From Jiangella alkaliphila (GTDB lineage Bacteria > Actinomycetota > Actinomycetes > Jiangellales > Jiangellaceae): DNA of 24,000 nt. The notes beneath the pieces were generated by a model. That model ran no database searches, was not told the origin of the DNA, and worked only from the letters and a program-made list of their open reading frames with translations. The position numbers were made by a program, and so were the translations under genes. Location of the stretch: NCBI RefSeq assembly GCF_900105925.1, contig NZ_LT629791.1:2057278-2081277 (forward strand), given 5' to 3'. Shown here piece by piece: positions 5,294-22,221 of this stretch; positions within the stretch are counted from its first letter, which is position 1; every line of letters begins with the position of its first letter.

Positions 5294-5319
5294 CCGCCGT
5301 CTCCCGAGGAGCGATCGCC

Positions 5320-7593
5320 ATGACCGCCGACCTGACCGCCCGCTACGCCAAGGCCGAGGCCCTGCTGCCGCACCACCTGAAGGAACTGGTCCGCACCCCA
5401 CGCGTGACGCCCCAGTGGATCGGCCGCACCGAGACGTTCTGGTACCGGACCAGGACGGCCGAGGGTGTGCGGTTCGTGGTCGTCGACGCCGAAGCCGGCA
5501 CGAAGCGGCCGGCGTTCGACCACGAGCGGCTCGCCCGCGCGCTCGGTGACGTCCTGGGGGAGGAGGTCGATCCGGCGGCGCTGCCGTTCTTCTCCATCGA
5601 CCTGCTCGAGGACGGCGCGGTGCGCGTGGTCGTCGGGGAGCGGCGGATCGAGATCGCCCTCGACGACTACGGCGCGACGGTCCTCGGCCCCGCCCACCCG
5701 GCCGAGTCGCCGTCGCCGGACGGGCGCTGGGCCGTGGGGATGCGCGACCACAACCTCTACCTGCGCGACACCGCCACCGACGAGGAGCGCCAGCTCACCA
5801 CCGACGGCGTCGAGTCGTACGACTACGCGACGATGGCGGACTCCTGTGCCAACCTGGTGATGCAGGAGAACCTCGGCTTCACCATGCCGCCGCTGGTCGT
5901 GTGGTCGCCGGACTCGACCCGGTTCGTCACGCACCGGCTCGACCAGCGCCGCGTCGGGCTCATGCACCTGCTGCGCTCCGCGCCGCCGGAGGGCGGCTTC
6001 CGGCCGAAGCCGATGGCCTATCGCTACGCCGTCGTGGGCGACACGACGGAGAACCTCGCGACCTCGGAGTACTTCGTATTCGAGGCGGCGACGGGCGCGG
6101 TGACGCGGGCCGCCGGCGAGCCGTTCCTCACCCCGTTCGTCCCCACCATCGCCTACGGCTTCCTGTGGTGGAGCGCGGACGGGGCGACCGTCTACTTCCT
6201 CTCCAGCGACCTCGGCGACCACACCGCCCGGCTGAACGAACTCGATCCCGGGACCGGCGCGGTCACGGTCCTGGTCGAGGAGACGAGCACGTCGCACATC
6301 CTGCACGGTCCCCAGCAGCAGGACAGCAACGTCCGGGTCACGTCGTCTGGCGAGGCGCTGTGGTGGTCGCGGCGCAGCGGCCACGGCCACCTCTACCGGT
6401 ACGGCCGCGACGGCTCCGTCACGACCCTGACCGCGGGCGACTGGTCGGTCCGCCACGTCGTGTCGATCGACGAGGACGCCCGCCGGGTCGTGTTCACCGG
6501 CGGCGGGCGCGAGCCGGGCTCAGACCCGTACCTGCAGGAGCTGTACTCGGTGTCGCTGGACGGCGGTGAGCTCACCGCGATCACGTCCGACGGCCGCGAC
6601 CACGCCTGCGCCGCGTCGCCGTCGGGACGGTTCTTCGTCGACAACACGTCGCGGTACGACGTCGAGACCGTGTCGGTGCTGCGCGACCGCTCCGGCGCTG
6701 TGGTGCTGGACCTCGAGCGGGCCGACGCCGCCGCCCTCTACGCGGCCGGCTGGACGCCCCCGGAGCGCGTCGTGGTGAAGGCCGCCGACGGCGAGACGGA
6801 CCTCTACTGCGCCATCTACAAGCCGCACGACTTCGACCCGTCGGCGACGTATCCCGTGGTCGAGGAGATCTATCCCGGCCCGCAGATCTCCACCGCGCCG
6901 CTGCGCTTCCCGCTGTCCGGAGGCGTGCTGACCGGCGAGCGCAACGCCGCGGGCTTCGCGGCGCTCGGGTTCGTCGTCGTGGCGGTCGACGGCCGGGGTT
7001 CCGCCCTGCGCGGCAAGGACTTCCAGGACTTCGGCCGCCGCGGGCCAGAGGGCGAGTTCGTCGGCGACCACGTCGCGGCGATCAAGCAGCTGGGCGCGAC
7101 CCGGCCGTGGATGGACCTGGATCGGGTCGGCATCTACGGCCACTCCGCGGGCGGCTACGCCTCGACCAGATGCATGCTGCTCGCACCCGAGTTCTACAAG
7201 GTCGCGGTCTCCTCGGCCGGCAGCCACGACAACCGCCCGAACCACGTGTGGTGGGCGGAGAAGTTCTTCGGCTCGCCCGACGAGTTCGACTTCGCCGCTC
7301 AGTCCAACCCCGAACACGCCGCGAAGCTGAGGGGCAAGCTGCTGCTGGTGCACGGCGAGATGGACGACAACGCCACGCCGCACCTGACGATGCGCCTGGT
7401 CGACGCCCTGATCAAGGCGAACAAGGACTTCGACCTCCTGATCGTCCCCAACGCCGACCACCGCCTGATGATCGGCACCGCGTACTGGCTGCGGCGGCGC
7501 TGGGACTACTTCGTCCAGCACCTGATGGGCGAGCCGCCGCCCGCGTACCAGATCGCCGACATCCCGATCGATCCGGAACTGCTGGCGCCCTGA
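5320..7593 (+). CDS. S9-family serine peptidase (dipeptidyl-peptidase IV-like beta-propeller N-domain plus alpha/beta-hydrolase C-domain), copy 1
   Basis: Sensible sequence begins at ATG 5320 (MTADLTARYAKAEALL), with GAGGAG at 5305-5310. Catalytic triad context: GIYGHSAGGYAS (Ser), HGEMDDNATP (Asp), VPNADH (His). The 5' 1.1 kb of the listed 4156..7593 ORF is off-frame read-through of the hydrolase gene. Confidence 0.9.
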   Translation: MTADLTARYAKAEALLPHHLKELVRTPRVTPQWIGRTETFWYRTRTAEGVRFVVVDAEAGTKRPAFDHERLARALGDVLGEEVDPAALPFFSIDLLEDGAVRVVVGERRIEIALDDYGATVLGPAHPAESPSPDGRWAVGMRDHNLYLRDTATDEERQLTTDGVESYDYATMADSCANLVMQENLGFTMPPLVVWSPDSTRFVTHRLDQRRVGLMHLLRSAPPEGGFRPKPMAYRYAVVGDTTENLATSEYFVFEAATGAVTRAAGEPFLTPFVPTIAYGFLWWSADGATVYFLSSDLGDHTARLNELDPGTGAVTVLVEETSTSHILHGPQQQDSNVRVTSSGEALWWSRRSGHGHLYRYGRDGSVTTLTAGDWSVRHVVSIDEDARRVVFTGGGREPGSDPYLQELYSVSLDGGELTAITSDGRDHACAASPSGRFFVDNTSRYDVETVSVLRDRSGAVVLDLERADAAALYAAGWTPPERVVVKAADGETDLYCAIYKPHDFDPSATYPVVEEIYPGPQISTAPLRFPLSGGVLTGERNAAGFAALGFVVVAVDGRGSALRGKDFQDFGRRGPEGEFVGDHVAAIKQLGATRPWMDLDRVGIYGHSAGGYASTRCMLLAPEFYKVAVSSAGSHDNRPNHVWWAEKFFGSPDEFDFAAQSNPEHAAKLRGKLLLVHGEMDDNATPHLTMRLVDALIKANKDFDLLIVPNADHRLMIGTAYWLRRRWDYFVQHLMGEPPPAYQIADIPIDPELLAP

Positions 7594-7631
7594 CGGCTCC
7601 ATCACCCGACGTCACCCGAGGAGCGAAACGT

Positions 7632-9902
7632 ATGAGCACCGATCTGGCCGGCCGCTACGCCAAGGCCGAGGCACTGCTGGCGCACAACCTCAAGAAGCTG
7701 GTCCACTCCCAGCAGGTGCGGCCGAACTGGATCCGCGACACCGAGACGTTCTGGTACCGCAACCAGACGGCCGAAGGGGTGCGGTTCGTCCTCGTCGACG
7801 CCGAGGCGGGCACGCAGCGGCCGGCGTTCGACCACGAACGCCTGGCCCAGGCGCTCGGCGCCGTCCTCGACAAGGAGGTAGATCCGGCGCAGCTGCCGTT
7901 CTTCGGGATCGAGCTGACCGACGACGTGGTCCGGGTCGTCGACGGGGAGCAGCGGATCGAGATCTCGCTCGACACCTATGCCGCGACGATCCTCGGCCCG
8001 GCCCACGGCTCCGAGACGCGCTCACCGGACGGCCGCTGGTCGGTGGGGGTCCGCGACCACAACCTCTACCTCCGCGACACCGCGACGAACGAGGAACGGC
8101 AGCTCACCTCCGACGGCGCCGAGGCGTACTCGTACGGGACGCCGCCGGACTCCACCGCGAACCGTGTGATGCAGGAGAACCTCGGCTTCACCACGCCGCC
8201 GCTGGTCGTGTGGTCGCCCGACTCCACCCGTTTCGTCACCCACCGGCTCGACCAGCGCGATCTCGAGCTCATGCACCTGGTGCGGTCGGCGCCGGCGGGC
8301 GGTGGCCGGCCGACGCCGATGACCTATCGCTACGCCATGGTCGGCGAGGAGAACGTCGCGACCGCGGACTTCTTCGTCTTCGACGCGCGGACCGGGCAGG
8401 CCACCCAGGCGAAGTCCGAGCCGGTGCGGATGGACTACCTCTCGGCCATCGCGATCGGCCACGTGTGGTGGAACGCCGGCTCGACGACGGTGTACTGGCT
8501 CTCGGCCGGCCGGGGTGGCCGGACCGCTCGGCTGCACGAGTTCGACCCCGCGACCGGCGAGGTCACCGTGCTGGTCGAGGAGACCAGCGACACGAACGTC
8601 CTGCACGGCCCGCAGTTCTACGACCGCAACGTCAAGGTCCTGGACTCCGGCGAGGTGCTCTGGTGGTCCGAGCGCACCGGCTGGGGCCAGCTCTACCGGT
8701 ACGCCGCCGACGGCACCGTCAGCACCGTCACCTCCGGCGACTGGCTGGCGCGCACGGTCGTCGGCGTGGACGAGCAGAACCGTCGCGTCGTCTTCACGGC
8801 GGCCGGGCGAGAGCCGGGTGCGGACCTGTACGTGCAGGGGCTCTACTCGGTGTCGCTCGACGGCGGCGAGATCACGGCCATCGCGTCCGACGGCCTCGAC
8901 CACGACCCGCGGCCGTCGAGGTCGGGGCGGTTCTTCGTCGACGTCATGTCCCGGGTCGACGTCCCGGCGGTCTCGGTGCTGCGCGACGCGACCGGAGCGG
9001 TCGTCCTGGAGCTCGAGCGGGCCGACGCCACCGCGCTCTACGCGGCCGGCTGGTCGCCGCCGGAGCGGGTCGTCGTGAAGGCGGCCGACGGCGTGACGGA
9101 CCTCTACTGCGCGATCTACAAGCCGCACGACTTCGACCCGTCTAAGACGTACCCGGTGCTCGACGAGATCTACCCCGGCCCGCAGGTCTCCACCACGCCG
9201 ATCCGCTTCCCGCTGTCCGGCGGCGTTCTGACCGCCGAGCGGCACGCGGCGCCGTTCGCCGCCCTGGGATTCGTCGTCGTGGCGGTCGACGCGCGGGGGA
9301 CGGCGATGCGGCACCGGGCCTTCCAGGACCACGCGCGGCTGGGCGGCGACGGCGAGTTCGTGGCCGACCACGTCGCGGCGATCAAGCAGCTCGGGCAGAC
9401 CCGGCCATGGCTGGACCTCGACCGGGTCGGCATCTACGGCCACTCCGGCGGTGGCTACGCCTCGACCCGGAGCATGCTGCTGGCTCCGGACTTCTTCAAG
9501 GTCGCGGTGTCGTCCGCGGGTGACCACGACGACGCCACGTACCACGCCTGGTGGGGCGAGCGGTTCTTCGGGCTGCCCGACGAGTTCGACTACGGTCCGC
9601 ACGCCAACGCCGCGGACGTCGGCAACCTCCAGGGCAAGCTGCTGCTGGCGCACGGCGCGATGGACGACAACGTCACGCCGCACCTGACGATGCGCCTGGT
9701 GGACGCGCTGATCGACGCCAACAAGGACTTCGACCTGTTCATCGTGCCGAACGCCGACCACAGCATGTTCCATCAGCAGGCCTACTGGCTCAGGCGCCGC
9801 TGGGACTACTTCGTGCGCCACCTGATGGGCGAGACGCCGCCGTCCTACCGCATCGCCGACGTCCCGGTCGACCCCGAGGTGATCGCCGCCTACATGGGCT
9901 GA
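7632..9902 (+). CDS. S9-family serine peptidase (DPP-IV-like), copy 2, tandem paralog of 5320..7593
   Basis: Starts at ATG 7632 (MSTDLAGRYAKAEALL), preceded by the same CCCGAGGAGCGA block as copy 1. It is collinear with copy 1 over the full length. Triad context: GIYGHSGGGYAS, HGAMDDNVTP, VPNADH. Confidence 0.9.
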   Translation: MSTDLAGRYAKAEALLAHNLKKLVHSQQVRPNWIRDTETFWYRNQTAEGVRFVLVDAEAGTQRPAFDHERLAQALGAVLDKEVDPAQLPFFGIELTDDVVRVVDGEQRIEISLDTYAATILGPAHGSETRSPDGRWSVGVRDHNLYLRDTATNEERQLTSDGAEAYSYGTPPDSTANRVMQENLGFTTPPLVVWSPDSTRFVTHRLDQRDLELMHLVRSAPAGGGRPTPMTYRYAMVGEENVATADFFVFDARTGQATQAKSEPVRMDYLSAIAIGHVWWNAGSTTVYWLSAGRGGRTARLHEFDPATGEVTVLVEETSDTNVLHGPQFYDRNVKVLDSGEVLWWSERTGWGQLYRYAADGTVSTVTSGDWLARTVVGVDEQNRRVVFTAAGREPGADLYVQGLYSVSLDGGEITAIASDGLDHDPRPSRSGRFFVDVMSRVDVPAVSVLRDATGAVVLELERADATALYAAGWSPPERVVVKAADGVTDLYCAIYKPHDFDPSKTYPVLDEIYPGPQVSTTPIRFPLSGGVLTAERHAAPFAALGFVVVAVDARGTAMRHRAFQDHARLGGDGEFVADHVAAIKQLGQTRPWLDLDRVGIYGHSGGGYASTRSMLLAPDFFKVAVSSAGDHDDATYHAWWGERFFGLPDEFDYGPHANAADVGNLQGKLLLAHGAMDDNVTPHLTMRLVDALIDANKDFDLFIVPNADHSMFHQQAYWLRRRWDYFVRHLMGETPPSYRIADVPVDPEVIAAYMG

Positions 9903-11128
9903 GACGCGCTCAGCTCCGACTCGACGCCGCGGGCGGTCGCGTGGGCGGGCAGGCCCAGCCACCGCGCGACCGAGGCGCCGACGTCGGCCAGCGAGGCCAG
10001 GTCGTGCCCTCGCCGTGCCGACGCGCCGGACCCCGTCCCCGCCAGGACGGGGACCCACTCGCGGGTGTGGAACGGGTGACCGATCGTCGGGTCGTTGCCG
10101 TGGTCGCCGGTGACGACCAGCAGGTCCTCCGGGCCGAGCCGCGCCACGATCCGGGGCAGCGCGCGATCGACCGCCTCCAACTGCCCGGCGAACGCGGCCG
10201 GGTCCTGCGAGTGCCCGGCGAGGTCGGTCTGCTGGACGTTCGCCACGACCAGCCCGTGCCCCGCGGTCGCGGCGACGTCGGCCAGGACGGCGGGGGTGTC
10301 CACGCCCGGTCGCCGGTCCACCGGCGAGTCGGTCACCAGCAGGTCCGCGGCCTTCCCGATCAGCACCACCCGGTGGCCGGCCCGGGCGGCCGCCTCGGGT
10401 AGCTGGTGGGCGTGGTCGACCCTGGCGCCGAGGTGCTGCACCCGCAGCCCGCCGTTGCGGTAGAAGCCGCTGGCCGGGGTGTCCAGCCCAACGGTGCCGC
10501 CGGGGCCGGGACGGACGGCGTCGGTCAGCGGCCGGTCGGAGTGGCCGCCGACGGCGATGACGCGGGCGACCGGCGCCACGTCGCGCACGACCCGCGCGAT
10601 GTCGAGGATCGCGGCGAAGTCGAGGTCGTCCAAGCGGGCGGAGACGTTCCAGTTCAGGCCGGGGTCGGCCTCCAGATTGTCGTGGACGAGCGCGGCGTCG
10701 TCGACGACGAGGACGGGGCCGTCGTCGAGCGTCCGCACCCGGTGCCCGCGGGCCCGCAGCGCCGCCGTCACCACGTCGATCCGGTCGGCCAGCCGGCACA
10801 GGACGACGTGGGACATGTCGGCGCCCATGAGCGTCTGGTGGCCGGCGAAGGAGTCCGCGCCGGGGTAGCCAAGCCCGGCCCGGGCGCCGGCCGCCCGCAG
10901 CAGCGGGACGGGCGCGGCGAGCAGGTCGCCCAGGTCCGGCCGCAGCGCCGCCAGCCCCAGCCCGGCCAGGTGCGGCACCCGCAGCGGGCGGCCCCGCTCG
11001 CGCACCGACCAGGCGGCGACGGCGCCGACGGTGTCCGCCGCGGCGTCGGCCGCCCGGACGGCAGCCGCGTCGGGCATCGCGCCGGTGCCGAAGCCGTCGA
11101 GGACGAGGACGGTGGCCGACGGGCTCAC
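9890..11128 (-). CDS. yhfW: YhfW-like phosphopentomutase/alkaline-phosphatase-superfamily metalloenzyme
   Basis: N-terminal VLVLDGFGTGAMPD and C-terminal VVTGDHGNDPTIGHPFHTREWVPVL are the metal-binding motifs of the phosphopentomutase-like family. GTG start at 11128 overlaps the upstream stop (GTGA). The upstream 330 codons of the listed 9890..12121 ORF are off-frame Arg-rich sequence. Confidence 0.85.
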   Translation of the reverse strand: MSPSATVLVLDGFGTGAMPDAAAVRAADAAADTVGAVAAWSVRERGRPLRVPHLAGLGLAALRPDLGDLLAAPVPLLRAAGARAGLGYPGADSFAGHQTLMGADMSHVVLCRLADRIDVVTAALRARGHRVRTLDDGPVLVVDDAALVHDNLEADPGLNWNVSARLDDLDFAAILDIARVVRDVAPVARVIAVGGHSDRPLTDAVRPGPGGTVGLDTPASGFYRNGGLRVQHLGARVDHAHQLPEAAARAGHRVVLIGKAADLLVTDSPVDRRPGVDTPAVLADVAATAGHGLVVANVQQTDLAGHSQDPAAFAGQLEAVDRALPRIVARLGPEDLLVVTGDHGNDPTIGHPFHTREWVPVLAGTGSGASARRGHDLASLADVGASVARWLGLPAHATARGVESELSASQPM

Positions 11129-12288
11129 GCGACCCGGCTCCCGAGCGCGTCGAACACGCCGTCCAGCCGGGGACGCTCCGAGCCGATCCCGGCGACGACG
11201 GCCACCCGGGAGCGGGTGACGAAGATCTGCGTGCGGAACGCCATGACCGCCGTGTCGCCGACGCGCGCGCCGTCGCCGCCGCCGGTCCAGTCGAACCGCC
11301 GGTAGTAGTCGATGCTGCCCGCCGGTGTGTCGTGCAGCGTCGCCCGGCGGCGGCCGCCACCGGTGGCGACGAGCAGGTCGCGGGCCCGGCCGCGGCTGTA
11401 GAAGCCGCCGCCGAAGACGCTCGGCGCGGAGCCGAGCTGGGCGATCTCCGAGACGTACACCAGCGCCGGCCGCTCGGTGAGGCCGGCGTCGACGGCGTGC
11501 TCGGGCGTCGTGCCGGTGAGCGCGTGGCCGGGCTCGCCGACGGTGCCGCCGAGCCGCTGGATCTGCGGGATCGTGCTGACGCTGGTGTGGCTGGGCAGCG
11601 ACAGCACGGGCTCGAGGCCGGCCGCGCGCATCGTCGCGGCGGCGGCGAGCACCCGGTCCAGCGTGCCCGTGGGCCGGGGCCGGCCGGCGTCGACGTCGAA
11701 GCTCAGGCAGGGGAAGCCGGTCGCGCCGGCGACGCGCACCCCGTCCAGCCGCGCGGCGTAGTCGAGCACGCCGGCGACGTCGCCGGGTTCGAAGCCGCCG
11801 TCCTGGCCGGGGAACGTCGACTCCGCCGCGCCGCGGATCTTCAGCAGCACCGGCTGGACCCGGCCGAGTTCGTGCGCGGCTGCGGCGATGGCGGCCAGGT
11901 TCTGCTCGTCCGCCGCGGTGACGTAGGCGGGCCGTTCCGCCAGCAGGCCGGGCAGCCGGCGCCGCGGCACCTGGACCAGGTGACCCAGGTTGCCCAGCCG
12001 GGCGCCCGCGCCGATCAGCGCGGCGGCCTCTCGGTGGTCGATCGCGGCGGCCAGCGGGAGGTGCTGGGCGACGGTCGAGGTGACGAGCGGGTTGCGGCCG
12101 TACTGCTTGGCGACGAACCACAGCTCGACGCCGTGCCGCGCGCCGGTCGCCGCCAGCGCGGCCGCGTTGTGGTCCACGGCGTCGAGGTCGATCACGTACG
12201 TGTCCGGTTCGATGGCGCCGGAGCGGTGCAGGTCGATCGCGGCCTCGACGAGCGCCGGGTTGCGCCGCTCGGTCATCGCCAGGAACAT
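11125..12288 (-). CDS. yhfX: YhfX-like fold-type III PLP enzyme (alanine racemase N-terminal domain family)
   Basis: MFLAMTERRNPALVEAAIDLHRSGAIEPDTYVIDLDAVDHNAAAL, with the Lys-containing block WFVAKQYGRNP. The length (387 aa) and N-terminus resemble E. coli YhfX as I recall it. The start ATG shares one base with the upstream TGA (TGATG). Confidence 0.8.
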   Translation of the reverse strand: MFLAMTERRNPALVEAAIDLHRSGAIEPDTYVIDLDAVDHNAAALAATGARHGVELWFVAKQYGRNPLVTSTVAQHLPLAAAIDHREAAALIGAGARLGNLGHLVQVPRRRLPGLLAERPAYVTAADEQNLAAIAAAAHELGRVQPVLLKIRGAAESTFPGQDGGFEPGDVAGVLDYAARLDGVRVAGATGFPCLSFDVDAGRPRPTGTLDRVLAAAATMRAAGLEPVLSLPSHTSVSTIPQIQRLGGTVGEPGHALTGTTPEHAVDAGLTERPALVYVSEIAQLGSAPSVFGGGFYSRGRARDLLVATGGGRRRATLHDTPAGSIDYYRRFDWTGGGDGARVGDTAVMAFRTQIFVTRSRVAVVAGIGSERPRLDGVFDALGSRVA

Positions 12289-13397
12289 CAACGATCCCCT
12301 TCGGCCAGCGCCGACCGCAGCATCCGGGCGGTCAGCTCGGCGCCGGCGCGCATCGGGTTCACCCGGACCGCCCAGTCGGCCAGCTCCGGCTGCGCGGTGA
12401 GCGTCGACGACGACAGCCGGTAGACCAGCGGGGTGATCTCGTGCCGTGAGTTGGACCCGACGGGGAACGGCGCCGCGCCGTGCCGCGCGGCCCACGCCGG
12501 CAGCTGTGCCGCCACCGGCCGGTCCAGCAGCGCGACGACACACAGGTCCTGCGCGTTGGCCAGCCTGACGTCGACGACGCCGGGCACCTCGCCGCCCGCC
12601 AGCCGGCCGGCCAGCTCCGTCACCGCACCGGCCTGCGCGGCCCAGTTCAGCGGCACCATCACCAGCGCCTGCAGGGCCGCGAGCGCCTGGCCGCCCTGGA
12701 CCTGGCCGCCGCCGGAGTAGTTCGCCGCCCGCGCCCGGCCGACCAGCTCGCCGTCGCCGACGACCACACCGACGCCCTCGGGGCCGTGCAGCTTGAACAG
12801 GGAGAACGCCGAGGCGGTCGCGCCGTGCTCGACGCCGGTCCGCGGGGTGCGGTAGACCGCGTAGTTGTCGTCCACGACGACCTTGCGGCCGGCCGCGACC
12901 GCCCGGGCGATGACGTCGGCGGGCTGGTGCCGGTCGGCCAGCCGCTGGCGCGAGTGCTGGACGTAGACCCAGCGCGCCGGGTCCTCGGCGAGGACGGTGT
13001 CGAGGGCCGCGTCGTCGTCGAAGTCGACCCGCGCCACGTCGGCCAGGCCGTCGCGGAACGTCGTCGCTGTCGTCGAATAGTCCGGAGCGTCGTGGGCGAC
13101 GATCCGGCGTTGCCCCTCCGACCACGGCCCGGCCGAGAGCGCGGCCCGGATCGCGCCGGTCCCCGCGCCCTGGACCAGGCAGGCGTCCTCGGCGCCGAAC
13201 GCCTGGGCCAGCGCCGCCTCCGCACGCGCCGTCGTGTCCGGCCGGCCGAGGCCCGCGACGACGCCGACGTCGGCGCGGAACAGCGCGCCGTCGGTGAAGT
13301 GGGTCGCGATCGCGGCGACCAGCCGCTGCTGCGCGGCCAGGGCGTCGTCGGCGGTCGCGATGGGCAGCGGGGTGGTCTCGGGCAGCGTAGGGCTCAT
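12288..13397 (-). CDS. yhfS: YhfS-like fold-type I PLP-dependent enzyme (aminotransferase/lyase-like)
   Basis: VQGAGTGAIRAALSA, DDNYAVYRTPRTG, FSLFKLHGPEGVGVVVGD (candidate PLP Lys) and YSGGGQVQGGQALAAL match my recollection of E. coli YhfS. Its ATG at 13397 overlaps the php stop (ATGA). Confidence 0.8.
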   Translation of the reverse strand: MSPTLPETTPLPIATADDALAAQQRLVAAIATHFTDGALFRADVGVVAGLGRPDTTARAEAALAQAFGAEDACLVQGAGTGAIRAALSAGPWSEGQRRIVAHDAPDYSTTATTFRDGLADVARVDFDDDAALDTVLAEDPARWVYVQHSRQRLADRHQPADVIARAVAAGRKVVVDDNYAVYRTPRTGVEHGATASAFSLFKLHGPEGVGVVVGDGELVGRARAANYSGGGQVQGGQALAALQALVMVPLNWAAQAGAVTELAGRLAGGEVPGVVDVRLANAQDLCVVALLDRPVAAQLPAWAARHGAAPFPVGSNSRHEITPLVYRLSSSTLTAQPELADWAVRVNPMRAGAELTARMLRSALAEGDR

Positions 13398-14317
13398 GGG
13401 TGCTCCGTTCCGTCCAGCCAGCGCAGCGCGTTTTCTCGGTACAGCAAGTCGAGGTCCGTGGGGTCGATGCCGCGGGCGGCCAGCTCGGCGCGGAACGGGC
13501 CGAGCACGTGGCCGAAGCCCGGCCCGCCGCGGCTGGTCAGGTAGGCGTCGCGGGAGATGTCGTTGCTGAGCAGCACGTGCCGGGCGTGGCCGGCCTCCAG
13601 CAGGGCGAGCAGCAGCTCGATCCGCTTCTCGTCCGGCTGGTACGACGCCTTGCCGACGGTGTCGAACGCGACGTACGCGCCGGCGGCCGCGATGGCCCGG
13701 TGCTGCCCGGGGTCGTCGATGAGGTCCTGGTGGCCGATCGAGATGCGGTGCGGCGGGAGGCCCGCGGACGTGAGCAGGTCGAGCTGTTCCAGCCCGCCGC
13801 GCCCGAGGTGGGCGTGGGTCGCGACGGACAGGCCGGTCCGCAACGCGGCACCGGCGGCGGCCAGCAGGCCGACCCGTTCGGCCGGAGTGGCCCGCTCGCC
13901 GCTGCTGCCGATCTCGCCGATCACGCCGGGGCGGATCCCGCCGCCGAGCCCGCCGCCGATGTCGTCCACCAGCAGTCGCGTCGCCTGCTCGACGGAGTCG
14001 CCGGGCTCGCCGTCGGGGTGGAACCGCTCGTAGTACCAGCCGGTCGCGAGCACCACCTCGACGCCGGCCCGCTCGGCGATGGCGCGGGCCCGCGCCGGGT
14101 CGCCGCCCATCGCGCGGCCGGTCAGGTCGACGACGAGGCCCAGCCCGCCCGTGCTCCGGGCCGCGGCCAGCTCGGCCGCCACCGCGGCGTCGTCGCTGAC
14201 CCGCGCCTCGGCGTCGCCGAACCGAGTGAGGTCCACGACCAGGTGCTCGTGCGCGAGGACCGTGCCGGGCACGTCCGCCGGCGCGAGCACCCGGCCGCCG
14301 GCCGTCCGGATCGGCAT
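13394..14317 (-). CDS. php: Phosphotriesterase-homology protein (Php; amidohydrolase superfamily, binuclear metal centre)
   Basis: Metal-ligand motifs appear in order: LAHEHLVVDL, GEIGSSG, VATHAH, ISIGHQD, LLSNDIS. The block AYVAFDTVGKASYQPDEKRIELL closely parallels E. coli Php (AYVQFDTIGKNSYYPDEKRI, from memory). Confidence 0.9.
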   Translation of the reverse strand: MPIRTAGGRVLAPADVPGTVLAHEHLVVDLTRFGDAEARVSDDAAVAAELAAARSTGGLGLVVDLTGRAMGGDPARARAIAERAGVEVVLATGWYYERFHPDGEPGDSVEQATRLLVDDIGGGLGGGIRPGVIGEIGSSGERATPAERVGLLAAAGAALRTGLSVATHAHLGRGGLEQLDLLTSAGLPPHRISIGHQDLIDDPGQHRAIAAAGAYVAFDTVGKASYQPDEKRIELLLALLEAGHARHVLLSNDISRDAYLTSRGGPGFGHVLGPFRAELAARGIDPTDLDLLYRENALRWLDGTEHP

Positions 14318-15711
14318 CAGCCCGCCACCGGCTGCACGAGGTCGACCAGATGCAGCAGGTTGAGCACGATGCCGCCGACGATGACCGCGGTCGGGCCGGC
14401 CGCCATCCGCACGATCGGACGTCCCATCGACTCGTTGAGCAGGTACAGGCCGCCGACCAGCGCGATGCCGAGGCCGCCGCCCATGGCCAGGCCGGCCATC
14501 AGTGAGCCGACCAGGATCGCCAGCGACAGCGACTCAGTGATCGCGTGCCTGATGTGGTCGGCCGACTCGCGCACGCTCGGCCAGTGCTGCAACCACCGGC
14601 CGACGGCGCTGAGCAGCAGCACCTCGGCCGACATGACCAGCGCGCCTAGCACGAACGCGATCGCGAGCGCCAGCGGCCAGGCGTCCACCCAGATGTGGGC
14701 GAGATAGCCGATCGGGTAGACGAAGGTGAACCCGGCCATCGCGTACGCGCCCGAGGCCAGCGCCGTCGTGGCGATGAGCGGCACGAAGCCGAAGGCGCGC
14801 AGGAAGTCGACCTGGGCGGCCTCGCCGTAGGTGCCGTCGGCGACGAGGAAGCTGGTGGCCTCGCCGCCGCCGAAGATGCCGCTGGCGGCCAGCGCCGCGA
14901 CCATGCCGCCGAGGATGCCCAGCGGGATCACGTTCCTGCGCAGCCGCTCCGCGTTAGGCCCGAACAGCTGGTCCGACGCCGCGGCGGTCGCGGCCTGCCG
15001 CTCCTCGTGCTCGGCCCGGTCGGCCGCGGAACCGCCGGCCAGCACCAGCTGCTCGACCCGCCGGGCGGTCCGGTCCTGGGTCAGCGCGAACCCGAGCAGC
15101 ATGATCACGCCGAGCGCCATGGCCAGCGACCCCGGGAACAGGTCCGGCCAGACGTTCATCGACAGCAGGATCATCGCGACCTCGGCGCCGAACGTGATCA
15201 GGCCCTTCGCGCGGCCGAACTGGCGGGTGATCGCCAGCACCGGGAACAGCGTGAACAGCCAGAGGATCGGGGTCGAGATCTGTTGCAGGGCCGTGACGAA
15301 GTCGATCGGCAGCGACGTCGCGGCCGAGTTGGCGGCGTTGAGGCCGAAGACGCAGACGGCGCCCCACGCCGCGCCGCCGGTGGCCGCGAGCCACCGCCAC
15401 GGCGCGATCAGGCCGATGATCTCCACCGGCAGGAACACCAGCCACGGGTTGAGCACTCCGGTCGACAGCGCCATCGGCGCGCCGAGCCCGAAGATGAACC
15501 CGGCCGAGAGCCCGGTGACGATCGTCGCGGTGGCCAGCCGGGTGGACCGGCCCTGGATGTAGTCGAGCAGGAACGGCCGGGCGCCGTCGTTGAAGACCGC
15601 GAGCGCGGCGTTCGCGATCAGCGCCGCGAACGCGCACAGCACGATGACCAGCACGCTCTGCCAGGCGTCGAACGAGACCGACGCCGTGTCGGTGGCGGCG
15701 AGGAGCGTCAT
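14317..15711 (-). CDS. yhfT: YhfT-like polytopic inner-membrane protein (putative transporter)
   Basis: 464 aa and highly hydrophobic, with many predicted TM segments. The blocks GFVPLIATTALASGAYAMAGFTFVY, SAEVLLLSAVGRWLQHWPSVRESADHIRHA and LNESMGRP match the YhfT family as I recall it. The start and stop overlap both neighbouring genes. Confidence 0.85.
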   Translation of the reverse strand: MTLLAATDTASVSFDAWQSVLVIVLCAFAALIANAALAVFNDGARPFLLDYIQGRSTRLATATIVTGLSAGFIFGLGAPMALSTGVLNPWLVFLPVEIIGLIAPWRWLAATGGAAWGAVCVFGLNAANSAATSLPIDFVTALQQISTPILWLFTLFPVLAITRQFGRAKGLITFGAEVAMILLSMNVWPDLFPGSLAMALGVIMLLGFALTQDRTARRVEQLVLAGGSAADRAEHEERQAATAAASDQLFGPNAERLRRNVIPLGILGGMVAALAASGIFGGGEATSFLVADGTYGEAAQVDFLRAFGFVPLIATTALASGAYAMAGFTFVYPIGYLAHIWVDAWPLALAIAFVLGALVMSAEVLLLSAVGRWLQHWPSVRESADHIRHAITESLSLAILVGSLMAGLAMGGGLGIALVGGLYLLNESMGRPIVRMAAGPTAVIVGGIVLNLLHLVDLVQPVAG

Positions 15712-16076
15712 GCGTCCGCCCCCTGTCGTCTCGCGTCCAGTACCGCCCAGAGCGCCGGCACGACGTCCTGGACCTGGTCCAGGGCGAAGCCGAAGGCGAG
15801 GTTGCCCGCGTCGACGGCGGCCTCGATCGCCTCGGCGGAGGGGATCGACCGGCCGAACGTGTGCGTCTTGTCCGAGCCGAGCAGCCCCACGAGCACCCCG
15901 AGGCTCGCGCCGGCGCCGGTGTGGCAGGTGCCGAGGTAGTAGTCCGCCTCGCCGGTGCGCAGCTGGATGGCCGCGTCCATGTCCGTGCCGATGACGACGC
16001 TGTCGTCCGGTCCGAGCAGTGGTCGCAGCACCTCCGCGACCTCGGTCTTCGCAACTCCACCAGCGATGATCTTCAT
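15708..16076 (-). CDS. yhfU: YhfU-like small protein (DUF2620 family)
   Basis: MKIIAGGVAKTEV...GEADYYLGTCHTGAGASLGVLVGLLG parallels the E. coli YhfU block YYIGACNTGAGAALS. ATG at 16076 has AAGGAG upstream on the minus strand. The listed 15708..16457 ORF carries a spurious Arg/Pro-rich N-terminal extension. Confidence 0.8.
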   Translation of the reverse strand: MKIIAGGVAKTEVAEVLRPLLGPDDSVVIGTDMDAAIQLRTGEADYYLGTCHTGAGASLGVLVGLLGSDKTHTFGRSIPSAEAIEAAVDAGNLAFGFALDQVQDVVPALWAVLDARRQGADA

Positions 16077-16453
16077 CGGTTCTCCTTGGTTGCGGTCAGC
16101 GCGAGGGCGCCGAGATGGAGGCTGAGGTATTGCTGCTCGACGGCGGACAGGGCGACGCCGAGCGCGGCTTGCGCACGGCCGGACACGCCGGCGGCGGCGT
16201 CCACGGCGGCCGGGGCCTCGTCGACGACCTGCTGGTAGACGGCGTCGGCCGGCGGCTCGACGTCCGGCTCGCCGCGCAGCAGCCGCCCGAGCGCGGCGAC
16301 GAGGTGCGAGGTGAGCGAGCCCGCGGTGTCGTCGGTGACCTCGAAGTCCGGTTCGAGCCGGGCGAGCTCGCTGGTCACGAACTCGACGACACCCGGAGGG
16401 GTCTGCGCCATCTCGCGGAACAGGTCGAGGCGCAGGCGGAGGCGGTCGTCCAT
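16073..16453 (-). CDS. yhfY: YhfY-like PRD-domain protein
   Basis: About 126 aa, all-helical: MDDRLRLRLDLFREMAQTP...VEQQYLSLHLGALAL. Its size and its position between the regulator and yhfU match YhfY. The stop overlaps the yhfU-like ATG (ATGA). The family assignment rests on context and on weak motif recall. Confidence 0.6.
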   Translation of the reverse strand: MDDRLRLRLDLFREMAQTPPGVVEFVTSELARLEPDFEVTDDTAGSLTSHLVAALGRLLRGEPDVEPPADAVYQQVVDEAPAAVDAAAGVSGRAQAALGVALSAVEQQYLSLHLGALALTATKENR

Positions 16454-16484
16454 GCATCGCTCCGTCGGTAGGTGGGATGGTCGG

Positions 16485-17408
16485 TCAGTAGGTGGGGATC
16501 CGCCGGCCGCCCACGACGTCGTCCGCAGCCGTCCGCACGAGGTCGTCCACGAGCGCGGCCTTGACCGCGGTCGGCAGCGCCTCGGCGTCGCGGCGCGCGA
16601 CGATGACGGCCGACGTGGTCGCGTCGTCCGCGAGCCCCTCGACCGGATGGACCGTGACCGGACTCGAGATGTGCGTGTCGATCTCGTCGAGGTTCCAGAC
16701 GGTGGCATCGACGAGGCCGTCGGCGAAGTACCTGTTCAGCTGGTTGTAGGACACCTCGACCCGCCGCTGTGGCGGCAGCCCGGGGAACACGGCGGCGGTC
16801 AGCTCGGCCTGGTCGACCGACGCCGGGTCGACGGCCACCCGCAGCTGCGGGTCGTCCGGCGTCCGGCCCTGGGCCACGACGAGGCCGTGCGCACCGACGT
16901 AGGTGTGCGGGCCGAAGTCGCGGACGACGTCCAGCTCCGGGTCGGAGAGCGCGGCGAACCGCGACATCACCGCGAAGTCGGCCCGCTCCTCCCGCAGCGC
17001 GCGCATGCGGTCGGTCGACCCGCGCACGAACATCAACGTCAGCGGCACGCCGGCCTGCTGGAACGCCGCATGCATCCCCGTCGCGAGGCCCTCGTAGCGG
17101 CGCGAGTACGGCAGCGGCATGGCGACCGAGATCGATCGGCTGCCCGCGAACTCCCAGATCAACCCGTGGTCGATGGCCGAGACGAAGGTGCCCAGCTTGC
17201 CGCGCGGGCGGATCTCGACCGCGCCGGCCTCTTCCAGTAGTGCCAGCGCCGCCTGGACGGTGCCCTTGCCGACCTGGAACCTGTCGCTGAGCTCCTGGAC
17301 GGTCGCCATCCGGTCGCCCGCCGACGCCGTCGACAGCTCGACGGCCAGCAGGTGGGCCACCGTGCCCACCTTCGACATCAGCATCTGGATGCGCGACATG
17401 GCGGGCAT
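16485..17408 (-). CDS. yhfZ: YhfZ-like transcriptional regulator (GntR-type winged HTH plus YhfZ C-terminal ligand-binding-like domain)
   Basis: N-terminal wHTH: ATVQELSDRFQVGKGTVQAALALLEEAGAVEIRPRGKLGTFV. It is the first gene of the operon. The start is ambiguous: ATG at 17408, 17399, 17384 or 17378, none with a clear SD. The promoter geometry favours a leaderless start at 17399. Confidence 0.8.
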   Translation of the reverse strand: MPAMSRIQMLMSKVGTVAHLLAVELSTASAGDRMATVQELSDRFQVGKGTVQAALALLEEAGAVEIRPRGKLGTFVSAIDHGLIWEFAGSRSISVAMPLPYSRRYEGLATGMHAAFQQAGVPLTLMFVRGSTDRMRALREERADFAVMSRFAALSDPELDVVRDFGPHTYVGAHGLVVAQGRTPDDPQLRVAVDPASVDQAELTAAVFPGLPPQRRVEVSYNQLNRYFADGLVDATVWNLDEIDTHISSPVTVHPVEGLADDATTSAVIVARRDAEALPTAVKAALVDDLVRTAADDVVGGRRIPTY

Positions 17409-17435
17409 ACTATCCAGAATTCTGGATATTGGCCA
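17407..17435 (-). promoter_or_regulatory. Candidate promoter TGGCCA-N17-TAGTAT with an embedded perfect 18-bp palindrome TATCCAGAATTCTGGATA (17411..17428), a putative operator of the yhf-like operon
   Basis: On the minus strand the -35-like TGGCCA lies at 17435..17430 and the -10-like TAGTAT at 17412..17407, 17 nt apart. The AT-rich perfect palindrome fills the spacer and overlaps the -10. The predicted TSS falls near the ATG at 17399. Confidence 0.4.
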
Positions 17436-17476
17436 GAACTAGTTCGTGGTGGCGCTGACCAGCAGCTTCGCCGTGG

Positions 17477-17923
17477 TCAGGCGGCTGCGACGCCCAGCTG
17501 ACGCAGGAAGTTGCGGTTGTCGGTGCGGACGAACTCCTCGACGAGCCGGCCCCGGTCGTCGAACCGGAAGATGTTGATGAGGTCCATCACCACGCGGGCG
17601 CCGGTGGGCTCCAGGCGGCCGGCCGGCGAGTGGGTGAACGGGCGCACGAAGGTCCCTTCGATCCACGTCTGGCAGGCGATCTGGTCGCCCTCGGCGATGA
17701 CGATCCCGCGGCGGATGCTCCGGTCGTCGAAGGCCGATCGGAGCGACCGGAAGAAGTCGGTGAGGCCCGCGTAGTCGGTGTCGAAGCCGTCCGGTCCGTG
17801 GAACGCGAAGTTCTCGGTGTCGAAGTAGGAGTCGATCTCCTCCTGGCTCGCGCCGGCGACCTCCAGCTCTCCGGCGCGGACGAGGCGCGCGACGAGTTCG
17901 TCCCGGGTGAAGTGGTGCGTCAT
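17477..17923 (-). CDS. SnoaL-like / ester cyclase family protein (NTF2-like fold)
   Basis: 148 aa. Contains FHGPDGFDTDYAGLTDFFRSLRSAFDDRSI, IAEGDQIACQTWIEGTF and PTGARVVMDLINIFRFDDRGRLVEEFVRTDNRNFLRQLG, typical of ester cyclase/SnoaL_2 proteins. AAGGA SD lies 6 nt before the ATG. Confidence 0.8.
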   Translation of the reverse strand: MTHHFTRDELVARLVRAGELEVAGASQEEIDSYFDTENFAFHGPDGFDTDYAGLTDFFRSLRSAFDDRSIRRGIVIAEGDQIACQTWIEGTFVRPFTHSPAGRLEPTGARVVMDLINIFRFDDRGRLVEEFVRTDNRNFLRQLGVAAA

Positions 17924-18039: not shown

Positions 18040-18933
18040 GTGGCGGAACTGACCCTGGTCGGCCTGCGCGTCGTCGTCGAGGTCGCGCGGGCGGGCTCCT
18101 TCAGCGCGGCCGCGGCGAGGCTGGGGTACACCCAGTCGGCGGTGTCGCGGCAGGTGGCGGTCACCGAGAAGGTCGCGGAGACGCCGCTGTTCGAGCGGCA
18201 CGCCCGCGGCGTTCGTCCGACCGCGGCCGGCGAGGCGTTGGTCCGGCACGCGAGCCGGGTGCTCGACGGCGTCGCGACGGCGACCCAGGAGCTGGCGGGC
18301 ATGCGCGACCGCCTCGTCATCGGCGGCTTCCCCACGGCCGCCGCGGTGCTGCTGCCGCGTGCCATCGCCAGGCTGACCGCGGCCCATCCCGGACTCCAGG
18401 TGCGGCTCACCGAGGCGTCGACCCCGGCGCAGCTCCTGGCGCTGCGTCGCGGACGCCTCGAGGTGGCCGTCCTCGCGACCGGCGACGGCCTCCCGGAGTA
18501 CGACCTGGACGGGCTGCGGCTCACCGAGCTGCGCGGCGGAGGCGGTGCCGGGGTCGCCGTCGCCGACACCCACCCCTTCGCGGTACGCGACCGGGTCGAG
18601 CCGGCCGAGCTGGCCGACCAGGCGTGGGTGGTCGGCGCGCGTGTGGGCGACGCGCCGGAGTTCGGCGCCTGGCCCGGCATCGCCGAACCGGTGATCTCCT
18701 TCGCCGCCCGCGACTGGCCCACCCGGCTGGGGCTCGTCGCCGCGGGTCTCGGGATCGCGCTCGTGCCCGGCCTCGCCGCCCCGGCGATGCCACGCGGCGT
18801 GCGCTGGGTCCCCGTCCGCGGCGACGGCCTCGGACGCACCGCGTGGACCGCGACGAAGCCGGACCCCAGCGCAGCCGCGCAGGCGATGGTGCGCGCCTTG
18901 GAGGAGGAGCTCGGCTCGTGGGCCACCCCCTAG
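18040..18933 (+). CDS. LysR-family transcriptional regulator
   Basis: N-terminal HTH: LRVVVEVARAGSFSAAAARLGYTQSAVSRQVAVTEKVAETPLFERHARGVRPTAAGEALV. The C-terminal substrate-binding domain is LysR-like. It is divergent from the SnoaL-like gene. GTG start. The stop TAG at 18931-18933 lies inside the left arm of the palindromic element. Confidence 0.9.
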   Translation: MAELTLVGLRVVVEVARAGSFSAAAARLGYTQSAVSRQVAVTEKVAETPLFERHARGVRPTAAGEALVRHASRVLDGVATATQELAGMRDRLVIGGFPTAAAVLLPRAIARLTAAHPGLQVRLTEASTPAQLLALRRGRLEVAVLATGDGLPEYDLDGLRLTELRGGGGAGVAVADTHPFAVRDRVEPAELADQAWVVGARVGDAPEFGAWPGIAEPVISFAARDWPTRLGLVAAGLGIALVPGLAAPAMPRGVRWVPVRGDGLGRTAWTATKPDPSAAAQAMVRALEEELGSWATP

Positions 18934-19111: not shown

Positions 19112-19303
19112 TCAGGGCCAGTAGTCGCACCGGCTCGAGTTGTACCACCAGCCGTAGCCGCCGGTCTCGGTGTCGATCATGAAGTAGTCGTGGCCGACGC
19201 ACGTGCCTGCTTGGACGGCGTTCGCGGGAACCGTGGCGGCCACCATTCCTGCCACCGCGACGCTGATACCCACCAGGCCGCTCACGATCACTCGACGCAT
19301 CAC
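19112..19303 (-). CDS. Small secreted pre-peptide (63 aa; Sec-type signal peptide, predicted mature ~34 aa with two Cys), unknown family
   Basis: MMRRVIVSGLVGISVAVAGMVAATVPANA / VQAGTCVGHDYFMIDTETGGYGWWYNSSRCDYWP, with n-, h- and c-regions and an AxA cleavage site. A strong SD GGAGG lies 7 nt upstream of the ATG on the minus strand (GGAGGTCAAGTGATG). The amino-acid composition is unlike the off-frame artefacts. Confidence 0.6.
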   Translation of the reverse strand: MMRRVIVSGLVGISVAVAGMVAATVPANAVQAGTCVGHDYFMIDTETGGYGWWYNSSRCDYWP

Positions 19304-19440
19304 TTGACCTCCGTGTTTTCCGACATCGGACGTGACGAAGCTAGCGGCGCCCGGCGGCCGGATGGCCCACTCCGGGCCGAACCCGAACGACCCCGAACGC
19401 CGGTGTCGTTAGGATCGTGGCGGCGCCGAGGGGAGCATCG

Positions 19441-22199: not shown

Positions 22200-22221
22200 C
22201 GAACCATCCATGGAGGCATCC

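Follow-up and report, generated by a model that had tools for sequence, protein, structure and literature searches.

The closest described relative of the locus considered here is the E. coli K-12 cluster yhfZ-yhfY-yhfX-yhfW-php-yhfU-yhfT-yhfS (b3383-b3376), whose products are still 'putative' or 'uncharacterized' in RefSeq. A January 2026 paper has yhfW among uncharacterized genes, and a literature search found neither a paper nor a 2026 RefSeq annotation giving the cluster a substrate; the preliminary description of the present DNA was right in holding that no substrate or role has been established. The same eight families occur one-to-one, on one strand and at 20-45% identity, in E. coli and in Jiangella alkaliphila, and they share the C-x-T-G-x-G motif of YhfU, the lysines of the PLP enzymes and the metal ligands of Php. 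The E. coli order given in that description is correct for K-12. It differs from the Jiangella order by two block moves that retain the pairs Z-Y, U-T and X-W, and these pairs adjoin in every arrangement seen.

Which of the two orders is the rearranged one? Z-Y-U-T-php-S-X-W, as in the window (the whole 24,000-nucleotide stretch analysed), is the order found at 72 of the 80 actinomycete loci; two Bacillota contigs and Cetobacterium (Fusobacteriota) have it too. In Actinomycetota, Bacillota and Fusobacteriota this order is canonical, and it is the Gammaproteobacteria (E. coli, Vibrio) that are rearranged. The earlier view of conserved content with shuffled order survives insofar as the window and E. 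coli differ by rearrangement, but the shuffled order is that of E. coli and Vibrio, not that of the window. Since the same eight genes are in the same order in many actinomycetes and two other phyla, the window holds one typical copy, and its high-GC actinomycete host, previously thought worthy of remark, is not so: dozens of genomes, among them Streptomyces, Jiangella, Aeromicrobium and Georgenia, have the family in their annotation. Across genera the eight genes co-occur without any other conserved neighbour, their flanks varying even between Jiangella species, and the module is patchily distributed, as an accessory, being in 458 of 185,579 species genomes and also on megaplasmids. The eight-gene set has exceptions: Z and W are missing from the module of a B. 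thuringiensis plasmid, S is absent from that of a Vibrio plasmid, and the Cetobacterium version has an extra amidase.

In the window, eight co-directional minus-strand genes at 9890-17399 correspond one-to-one to YhfZ, YhfY, YhfU, YhfT, Php, YhfS, YhfX and YhfW, and all eight translations exactly match deposited Jiangella alkaliphila proteins. The assignment to the families of the E. coli php cluster is borne out by Pfam, NCBIfam and PDB matches, and catalytic and ligand residues are kept across about 80 orthologues. A complete operon spanning 9890-17435 had been proposed: the gene set and left end stand, while 17435 is the outermost 5' base of a -35-like hexamer and yhfZ starts at 17399 in RefSeq (304 aa) or at 17408 in GenBank (307 aa). 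Similarly, seven of eight junctions had been counted as overlapping; there are seven, of which six overlap, the exception being a 31-nt gap from yhfZ to yhfY. No internal promoter or terminator-like site was found on the coding strand of the operon and, with the short or overlapping junctions and one conserved predicted promoter/operator, this supports the earlier proposal that the eight genes are one functional unit.

That predicted promoter, with a palindrome in its -35/-10 spacer, is new in this analysis. Its -35-like hexamer, TGGCCA (17430-17435, minus strand), agrees with the TTGACA consensus in 4 of its 6 bases and aligns with a TTGnCA (TTGCCA, TTGACA, TTGGCA or TTGTCA) that other genera have at this position; a strict sigma-70 scan did not call a yhfZ promoter. 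The -10-like hexamer is TAGTAT (17407-17412, minus strand), and TAnnnT is at the same position in 17 of 17 representative loci. In these 17 loci, from nine named genera and MAGs, the start codon lies 6-8 nt past the -10, which suggests that the yhfZ mRNA is leaderless. The perfect 18-bp palindrome TATCCAGAATTCTGGATA (17411-17428) fills the 17-nt spacer and overlaps the -10. It occurs once in the window against a chance expectation of 0.01 matches, and at all 77 other actinomycete loci a version with 0-5 mismatches precedes the start of yhfZ by 16-29 nt (mostly 19-23); sequence farther upstream is without conservation. In E. coli, no copy of this actinomycete palindrome was found ahead of yhfZ. 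It is probably the operator of YhfZ (16485-17399, 304 aa, exact match to WP_046770364.1), a winged-helix regulator of GntR type that carries a PBP-like ligand domain (Pfam YhfZ_C 1.5e-53, plus HTH_41 and GntR; NCBIfam YhfZ_full 287 bits, cut-off 260; PDB 2OZZ 'yhfZ' 1.6e-25), which has weak secondary matches to NMT1 and SBP_bac_3.

Catabolic operons usually combine a regulator able to bind a ligand with a membrane protein and hydrolytic and PLP enzymes, as here. We consider it modestly probable that the module, the Jiangella orthologue of E. coli yhfZYXW-php-yhfUTS, is a self-contained, substrate-inducible system for uptake and catabolism, the most likely function being inducible uptake and breakdown of an amino-bearing, phosphorylated compound; that the substrate bears an amino group, and is possibly phosphorylated, is reasonable to infer. 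The eight genes would be transcribed from the one conserved predicted promoter, with YhfZ, through its winged helix, binding the spacer palindrome and repressing until its PBP-like sensor meets the arriving ligand. YhfY, always encoded beside YhfZ, would tie induction to whether the PTS is phosphorylated. With YhfT as permease, YhfU could act on, or pass along, the incoming sugar-phosphate-like substrate by means of its RpiB/LacAB-like Cys-Thr loop. Php would then open a lactone or ester ring, probably of a phosphorylated substrate, YhfW would shift or remove phosphate via a Ser/Thr phospho-enzyme, YhfX would invert or labilise the amino-bearing carbon, and YhfS would take off the amino group by elimination or transamination.

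YhfY (16073-16453, 126 aa) alone among the eight scores below its cut-off (18.3 bits; Pfam PRD, 23). Its family profile matches both PRD1 and PRD2 of LicT at 7.3e-11, H50 and H113 aligning with the phosphorylatable His positions of these domains; H50 is invariant across five phyla and the H113 position is His in 77 of 78 sequences. Unlike the window protein, those of E. coli, Vibrio and Cetobacterium have Asn there. A new result here is that YhfY, on this alignment, is a genuine PRD, present singly and with His at the two phosphorylatable positions. The likeness to the LicT, GlcT, BglG and MtlR regulators stops at the PRD, as YhfY is a stand-alone single domain without an RNA- or DNA-binding domain, DNA binding here being the function of the separate, adjoining YhfZ.

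YhfU (15708-16076), a small alpha/beta protein of DUF2620 (Pfam 1.5e-34; AF2 model pLDDT 92), is suggestive of homology to the RpiB/LacAB isomerases, though not established as such. Its best PDB fold match by Foldseek is RpiB 5IFZ (E 7.5e-4, TM 0.63), the only RpiB entry in the top 50, and its best sequence-profile match is 2PPW, both being RpiB/LacAB members. C51-x-T53-G54-x-G56 is invariant across five phyla and in register with the RpiB catalytic C66-G-T68-G-x-G. At the sequence level the relation is weak (hhalign E 0.0088, probability <5%, 26 columns), there is no Pfam LacAB_rpiB match, and YhfU is about 30 residues shorter and without equivalents of RpiB Asp9/His10, His99/Asn100 and the C-terminal Arg133/Arg137. 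Its gene is always directly upstream of yhfT, which it overlaps in Jiangella. YhfT (14317-15711, 464 aa; Pfam YhfT 3.6e-135; AF2 model all-helical, pLDDT 85) is presumed a permease solely because it is a polytopic membrane protein; no PDB structure matches the fold of its model (best E 0.26, TM <0.2), and its family is small and orphan, amounting to only 239 clusters at 50% identity in a set of 1.84 billion representatives.

These three proteins might instead form a non-canonical PTS-like group translocator, phosphate being relayed from HPr~P via YhfY (His50/His113) to Cys51 of YhfU as an EIIB analogue, with YhfT as an EIIC analogue importing and phosphorylating the substrate. A phosphomutase-like enzyme without a kinase would thereby be accounted for, there being no kinase in or beside the module in any phylum surveyed, whereas uptake followed by catabolism leaves the source of the phosphorylated intermediate unexplained. 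The conserved PRD histidines, the invariant cysteine, glycine-rich loop and small alpha/beta fold of YhfU, its fixed position before yhfT, and the relatedness of RpiB and EIIB folds fit such a relay. We nevertheless regard it as doubtful: PRDs are not known as phosphocarriers but as regulatory phosphorylation targets, the second YhfY histidine is replaced in the three genera named above, EIIB is absent from the top 50 fold matches of YhfU, the YhfT model matches neither EIIC nor another solved transporter, and so small a family is not a branch of the large EIIC family.

The putative enzymes are firmly placed in their families. Php (13394-14317, 307 aa), a phosphotriesterase-homology binuclear-metal hydrolase (Pfam PTE 5.3e-54; PDB 1BF6/4LEF 5e-52), keeps its metal ligands H23, H25, E135, H168, H196 and D253, and likewise K223, R256 and Y259, in 80 sequences. 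YhfS (12288-13397, 369 aa), of PLP fold type I (YhfS-like_C 3.6e-34, plus Aminotran_5; PDB 4J8L 'YhfS' 1.4e-83), keeps S199-x-x-K202 and D176 among orthologues, which further match Cys_Met_Meta_PP and Met_gamma_lyase. YhfW (9890-11128, 412 aa, GTG start), phosphopentomutase-like and of the alkaline-phosphatase superfamily (NCBIfam PRK12383 375 bits, cut-off 254; Pfam Metalloenzyme 9.2e-26; PDB phosphopentomutases 8e-20, limited to the C-terminal third), keeps D11, D92, D302, H306, D342, H343 and H354, and has at position 93 either Thr (66 sequences) or Ser (12). YhfX (11125-12288, 387 aa), of PLP fold type III (YhfX-like_C 2.3e-21; Ala_racemase_N 7.5e-11; PDB 4KBX 'YhfX' 4.7e-65), keeps K61, C194 and E252-P-G-H255. 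Racemases place Arg at PLP N1, and the decarboxylase-type motif is EPGR. YhfX has E252-P-G-H where racemases put this Arg, a motif resembling the decarboxylase-type one, so that its racemase activity is not assured. It is like the fold III ornithine racemase OrnR, whose Lys36 and Cys164 acid-base pair are 128 residues apart (PMC13397332), in having an invariant Cys194 about 133 residues on from an equally invariant Lys61, as compared by residue spacing, not alignment.

The same enzymes could be read as scavenging phosphorus and nitrogen, not carbon, from a natural organophosphate or phosphonate ester, with Php cutting the phosphorus ester, YhfW as an alkaline-phosphatase-superfamily hydrolase freeing phosphate or cleaving a C-P-linked group, and the PLP enzymes handling the amino moiety, as in 2-aminoethylphosphonate pathways. 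No kinase would be required; Php is in the phosphotriesterase family, in which certain PDB relatives, such as 3RHG (Pmi1525), hydrolyse organophosphonate esters, YhfW weakly matches phosphonate-pathway enzymes (PhpG, 8e-7) and shares its superfamily with phosphonoacetate hydrolase, and the Aminotran_5 match of YhfS is to the fold class of PhnW. This is distinctly unlikely, however, as YhfW retains the phosphopentomutase-type Ser/Thr nucleophile and gets a far better score from the YhfW/mutase model than from any model of a phosphonate enzyme, and E. coli Php is said, from the work of Buchbinder et al. in 1998, to be without phosphotriesterase activity. A biosynthetic or protective cluster, one that for instance makes or detoxifies a D-amino-acid-containing or lactone metabolite, with YhfT exporting and not importing, is very improbable. 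In its favour, secondary-metabolite clusters can likewise contain PLP and racemase-like enzymes, Streptomyces-rich lineages have the module as an accessory, and a biosynthetic role was suggested for a Salmonella ornithine racemase operon (PMC13397332). Against it, the module has no conserved scaffold enzyme such as a ligase, NRPS or ATP-grasp protein, the same eight genes are in gut Enterobacteria, Fusobacteria and Bacilli of very different secondary metabolism, and control that responds to nutrients typically pairs a PRD protein with a regulator bearing a PBP-like sensor.

Two further known systems bear comparison. The phospho-sugar lactonases (Lmo2620/Bh0225, and the Mycoplasma phospho-furanose lactonase, NF045706) have the fold of Php and, like it, a binuclear site bridged by Glu and not by carboxylated Lys (PDB 3PNZ 1e-21; NF045706 6.8e-9). 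Php K223, R256 and Y259 presumably fall, going by the alignment offset, on the phosphate-binding Lys242, Arg275 and Tyr278 of Lmo2620. However, the window protein is far closer to E. coli Php (5e-52), reaches 35 bits against an NF045706 equivalog cut-off of 630, and has a different operon context. The Salmonella dga locus comprises a D-glucosaminate PTS, the PLP ammonia-lyase DgaE and the aldolase DgaF. It differs in that its PTS is a canonical one of the mannose family and in lacking PTE-like, fold-III PLP and mutase-like enzymes, but by description it is an analogue in how it works: uptake yields a phosphorylated amino-sugar acid, and PLP-dependent deamination follows.

The operon has eight minus-strand genes, which encode a GntR-type regulator (yhfZ, 16485-17399 in RefSeq, or to 17408 in GenBank), a PRD protein (yhfY, 16073-16453), a DUF2620 protein (yhfU, 15708-16076), a YhfT family membrane protein (yhfT, 14317-15711), a phosphotriesterase family member (php, 13394-14317), a fold-type I PLP enzyme (yhfS, 12288-13397), a predicted fold-type III PLP enzyme (yhfX, 11125-12288) and a phosphopentomutase-like protein (yhfW, 9890-11128). 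All eight yhf/php families are there, contiguous and co-directional, as an orthologue of E. coli b3376-b3383, and Pfam and NCBIfam searches bear out the family to which the preliminary description had assigned each product. The eight translations, from a window whose G+C ranges from 67 to 78%, exactly match deposited Jiangella alkaliphila proteins (100% identity for YhfT). RefSeq names these, in the order of transcription, GntR-family regulator YhfZ, hypothetical/PRD-domain protein, DUF2620 family protein, YhfT family protein, phosphotriesterase family protein, class-V-fold PLP enzyme, alanine racemase and phosphopentomutase. The best PDB matches are solved E. coli or Shigella structures (1BF6/4LEF for Php, 4J8L for YhfS, 4KBX for YhfX and 2OZZ for the YhfZ C-domain). 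This is a typical, already annotated member of a known operon family without an assigned substrate.

A pattern-limited scan of 185,579 species genomes found a YhfT relative in 458 of them; the 80 best of these hits are all from Actinomycetota, their genera including Jiangella, Aeromicrobium, Georgenia, Enemella, Boudabousia, Streptomonospora and Actinomadura, with many Streptomyces. The order Z-Y-U-T-php-S-X-W, identical to that of the window, is present in 72 of these 80 loci; seven of the others are without genes at one end of the operon, several of them terminating at a contig end, and one (L057) is without only a detectable YhfY. Two Bacillota contigs repeat this order, one from Cytobacillus firmus and one with a YhfT that RefSeq places in Clostridia, and so does the fusobacterium Cetobacterium somerae, there with an extra gene between yhfT and php. 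That inserted gene, in an otherwise canonical operon, is annotated as ‘amidase family protein’ (13279-14310 of the Cetobacterium locus, L084) and hints that an amide bond can be part of the natural substrate in some hosts. The E. coli order differs, being Z-Y-X-W-php-U-T-S, and a Vibrio halioticoli plasmid (L085) has Z-Y-php-U-T-X-W without S. It had been proposed that a conserved gene set is here found in shuffled order; the difference from E. coli stands, but the window does not have the shuffled order. Its order is the majority order elsewhere, and the E. coli and Vibrio arrangements are rearranged versions. Reduced modules occur on megaplasmids, that of Vibrio and one of B. thuringiensis (L083), which has Y-U-T-php-S-X only, without Z and W; Y, U, T, php and X are the genes common to every version seen.

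Through all arrangements the adjacencies Z-Y, U-T and X-W are kept. No conserved flanking gene, such as one for a kinase or for PTS components, adjoins the module across the genera examined, and in three other Jiangella species the operon has none of the window's own neighbours (the SnoaL-like gene, LysR regulator, NB-ARC/TPR protein, DPP-IV-like peptidase and beta-lactamase-fold protein) near it. Kept order and adjacencies, together with the want of shared neighbours, argue that the eight genes relocate together as one self-contained unit. In E. coli K-12 (L001:1-4784) the cluster directly adjoins the fructoselysine operon frlABCD-frlR and is convergent with frlR, which, since the other phyla have no such neighbour, is probably coincidence.

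The surroundings in the window have some features of their own. A DPP-IV/S9-family peptidase gene (7107-9902, plus strand; Pfam DPPIV_N 3e-45, Peptidase_S9 2.5e-35) converges on yhfW; the two 3' ends overlap by 13 nt (9890-9902), and the terminator scan gave no terminator-like site between them. On the other side a small SnoaL-like protein (17477-17923, minus strand) and a divergent LysR-family regulator (18040-18933, plus strand) form a separate pair, neither of which adjoins the yhf module in the other Jiangella species examined. Farther on are a 961-aa ORF for an NB-ARC and TPR protein of the actinomycete STAND/AfsR-like regulator type (19190-22075, plus strand) and a 345-aa ORF (22210-23247, plus strand) with a GC3 of 0.93 and no Pfam match, located where the GC content of the window is at its lowest (0.67). 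No convincing gene was assigned at 5300-7100, which separates the beta-lactamase-fold gene (4172-5293) from that of the peptidase; a 432-aa minus-strand ORF at 5158-6456 has no Pfam match.

How is such a block controlled? Immediately upstream of yhfZ is a perfect 18-bp palindrome, TATCCAGAATTCTGGATA (17411-17428), unique within the window, where 0.01 matches are expected by chance. In all 77 of the other actinomycete loci examined, the yhfZ start is preceded at a distance of 16-29 nt (mostly 19-23 nt) by a version with zero to five mismatches. When 17 representative loci (nine named genera and MAGs) were aligned, a core was constant and the sequence farther upstream unalignable. The core starts with a TTGnCA-like hexamer (TGGCCA in the window, 17435-17430), followed after one or two bases by the palindrome, which fills the 17-nt promoter spacer; a TAnnnT hexamer (TAGTAT, 17412-17407) begins with the palindrome's last two bases, and an ATG or GTG start is 6-8 nt past it (ATG at 17399 in the window). 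As judged from the alignment, the layout is that of a leaderless actinomycete promoter with a candidate repressor operator covering the spacer and the -10, and YhfZ would be the protein that binds the palindrome. Since the alternative ATG at 17408 falls within the -10, the RefSeq start giving a 304-aa YhfZ is favoured over that giving 307 aa. A strict sigma-70 consensus scan missed this promoter, which is visible only by cross-genus alignment; the same scan and a terminator scan found no internal promoter and no coding-strand terminator inside the operon, the one terminator-like site being on the wrong strand and at chance frequency. There was no Rfam match in the window to a riboswitch, RAT or other RNA element, and a search upstream of E. 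coli yhfZ did not find the actinomycete operator motif. A hairpin (17440-17490, minus strand; -19.8 kcal/mol, z = -2.2) lies shortly before the yhfZ -35; it extends across the SnoaL-like gene's stop codon and may be a U-tract-less terminator insulating the yhf promoter.

YhfZ itself has the winged helix-turn-helix and YhfZ_C architecture (NCBIfam YhfZ_full 287 bits against a cut-off of 260, GntR 31.9 against 27, YhfZ_C 182 against 35; 1.6e-25 to PDB 2OZZ), and in its sensor domain there is a weak, secondary resemblance to NMT1 and to solute-binding proteins of family 3. YhfY consists of one PRD that stands alone and is recognized through its family profile: the single sequence scores 18.3 bits, below the Pfam PRD cut-off of 23, and the profile of 15 orthologues from five phyla matches the LicT PRDs at 7.3e-11 and those of GlcT and the BglG family at 1e-6 to 4e-4. 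Its H50 and H113 occupy the positions of the phosphorylatable histidines in the alignment to both PRDs of LicT. The former is His in all 78 sequences and invariant across five phyla; the latter is His in 77 of the 78. Across the phyla sampled, position 113 is His in actinomycetes and Bacillota, and in E. coli, Vibrio and Cetobacterium it is Asn.

For the enzymes, residue conservation was scored over about 80 orthologues, E. coli included. Php conserves its metal ligands, H23, H25, E135, H168, H196 and D253; in the alignment they correspond to H12, H14, E125, H158, H186 and D243, the ligands of the Glu-bridged binuclear site in E. coli Php. Also conserved are K223, R256 and Y259, which by the offset of the 3PNZ alignment fall at residues that presumably bind phosphate in the phospho-sugar lactonase Lmo2620. 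Php is below the equivalog cut-offs for phospho-furanose lactonase (NF045706, 35 against 630 bits) and OPH (NF041153, 64 against 500), and below that of the E. coli-type model PRK09875 (193 against 486). YhfW similarly is below the DeoB equivalogs (PRK05362, 116 against 256 bits; TIGR01696, 84 against 341) and above the YhfW-type model PRK12383 (375 against 254); it aligns to solved phosphopentomutases in its C-terminal third only. Its D92 is conserved. D11, D302, H306, D342, H343 and H354 are invariant, and residue 93 is a Thr in 66 sequences and a Ser in the other 12; these we assume to correspond to the phosphopentomutase metal ligands and Thr/Ser nucleophile. Because the Asp/His set and Thr/Ser93 are conserved, YhfW is predicted to be competent for phosphoryl transfer.

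The assignment of YhfX to the fold-type III, alanine racemase-like PLP enzymes is drawn from its Ala_racemase_N score (42.6 against 24.1 bits), its match to 4KBX (4.7e-65) and an invariant putative PLP lysine, K61. C194 and E252-P-G-H255 are also conserved. A Lys/Cys pair is used by ornithine racemase, likewise of fold type III (2025 study, PMC13397332), and the distance from K61 to C194 in YhfX is similar. YhfS is a fold-type I PLP enzyme (4J8L at 1.4e-83; YhfS-like_C 117.6 against 27 bits) with conserved S199-x-x-K202 and D176; its orthologues also match Cys/Met-metabolism and Met-gamma-lyase models, and a lyase or aminotransferase role is therefore favoured.

The predicted structure of YhfU is confident (pLDDT 92), and its best PDB match by Foldseek is Brucella RpiB 5IFZ (E 7.5e-4, TM 0.63), with no second RpiB in the top 50 and generic flavodoxin-like folds following. 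The best sequence-profile match is 2PPW; it and 5IFZ are both bona fide RpiB/LacAB members. A loop, C51-x-T53-G54-x-G56, is invariant in five phyla and by three methods is in register with the RpiB catalytic C66-G-T68-G-x-G. Direct hhalign comparison with RpiB is weak (E 0.0088, probability 4.6%), and 26 YhfU orthologues searched against Pfam, with E allowed up to 10, gave no LacAB_rpiB match, the one weak match being to Gly_rich_SFCGS (0.035). The likeness to RpiB/LacAB, as modelled and aligned, is a good lead and not membership. As a candidate PTS EIIB YhfU was rejected, with no EIIB in the Foldseek top 50. The AF2 model of YhfT is likewise confident and all-helical (pLDDT 85), and nothing in the PDB matches its fold by Foldseek (best E 0.26, TM below 0.2). 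With that search empty, and exhaustive HMMER revealing a tiny isolated family, EIIC or another known transporter fold was rejected for it too. At 50% identity the family comprises 239 clusters in a set of 1.84 billion representatives; when the two halves of YhfT were compared by hhalign, no significant internal repeat emerged. YhfT is an orphan membrane-protein family, presumably of transporters, and on the model may have a membrane-protein fold without a solved representative.

The set of genes, their one promoter and the residue conservation are observed; for the proteins we infer roles in what is most likely an inducible uptake-and-catabolism unit. YhfZ would repress at the palindrome until its ligand binds, with YhfY linking repression to the state of the PTS; YhfT and YhfU would import and first handle the substrate; Php would open a lactone or ester, YhfW shift or remove a phosphate, YhfX act at the amino-bearing carbon and YhfS take off the amino group. 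The main gap is a mutase-like enzyme without any kinase beside it, and this keeps two other explanations alive. One is that the imported substrate is an ester phosphorylated or phosphonylated from the outset. The other is PTS-like group translocation by YhfT, YhfU and YhfY, against which YhfT and YhfU are without fold similarity to EIIC or EIIB. That Z-Y-U-T is a new kind of PTS-coupled uptake, in which the orphan permease YhfT, an RpiB/EIIB-like Cys-x-Thr YhfU and the single PRD of YhfY deliver an amino compound that is already phosphorylated to a four-enzyme pathway without a kinase, we consider improbable. In the inducible uptake-and-catabolism unit, the PRD protein YhfY points toward PTS-linked control.

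That no substrate has been established, as the preliminary description held, agrees with what was found: no paper assigning one to the yhf/php cluster in the literature searched (coverage that takes in few subscription journals), a RefSeq annotation of the E. coli K-12 cluster that is still ‘putative/uncharacterized’, and a January 2026 screen that counts yhfW among uncharacterized genes. Despite solved structures of Php, YhfS, YhfX and the YhfZ C-domain, the cluster is a long-standing E. coli ‘known unknown’. Set against it the window brings no new kind of system; what the comparison does is sharpen the problem. The eight genes behave as a single mobile module whose canonical order is shared by three phyla, its conserved candidate operator and leaderless promoter are usable for reporter and ligand screens, and YhfU offers a concrete candidate catalytic loop. 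With the PRD of YhfY and the orphan family of YhfT, these are testable handles for assigning a pathway to a cluster long familiar from E. coli.
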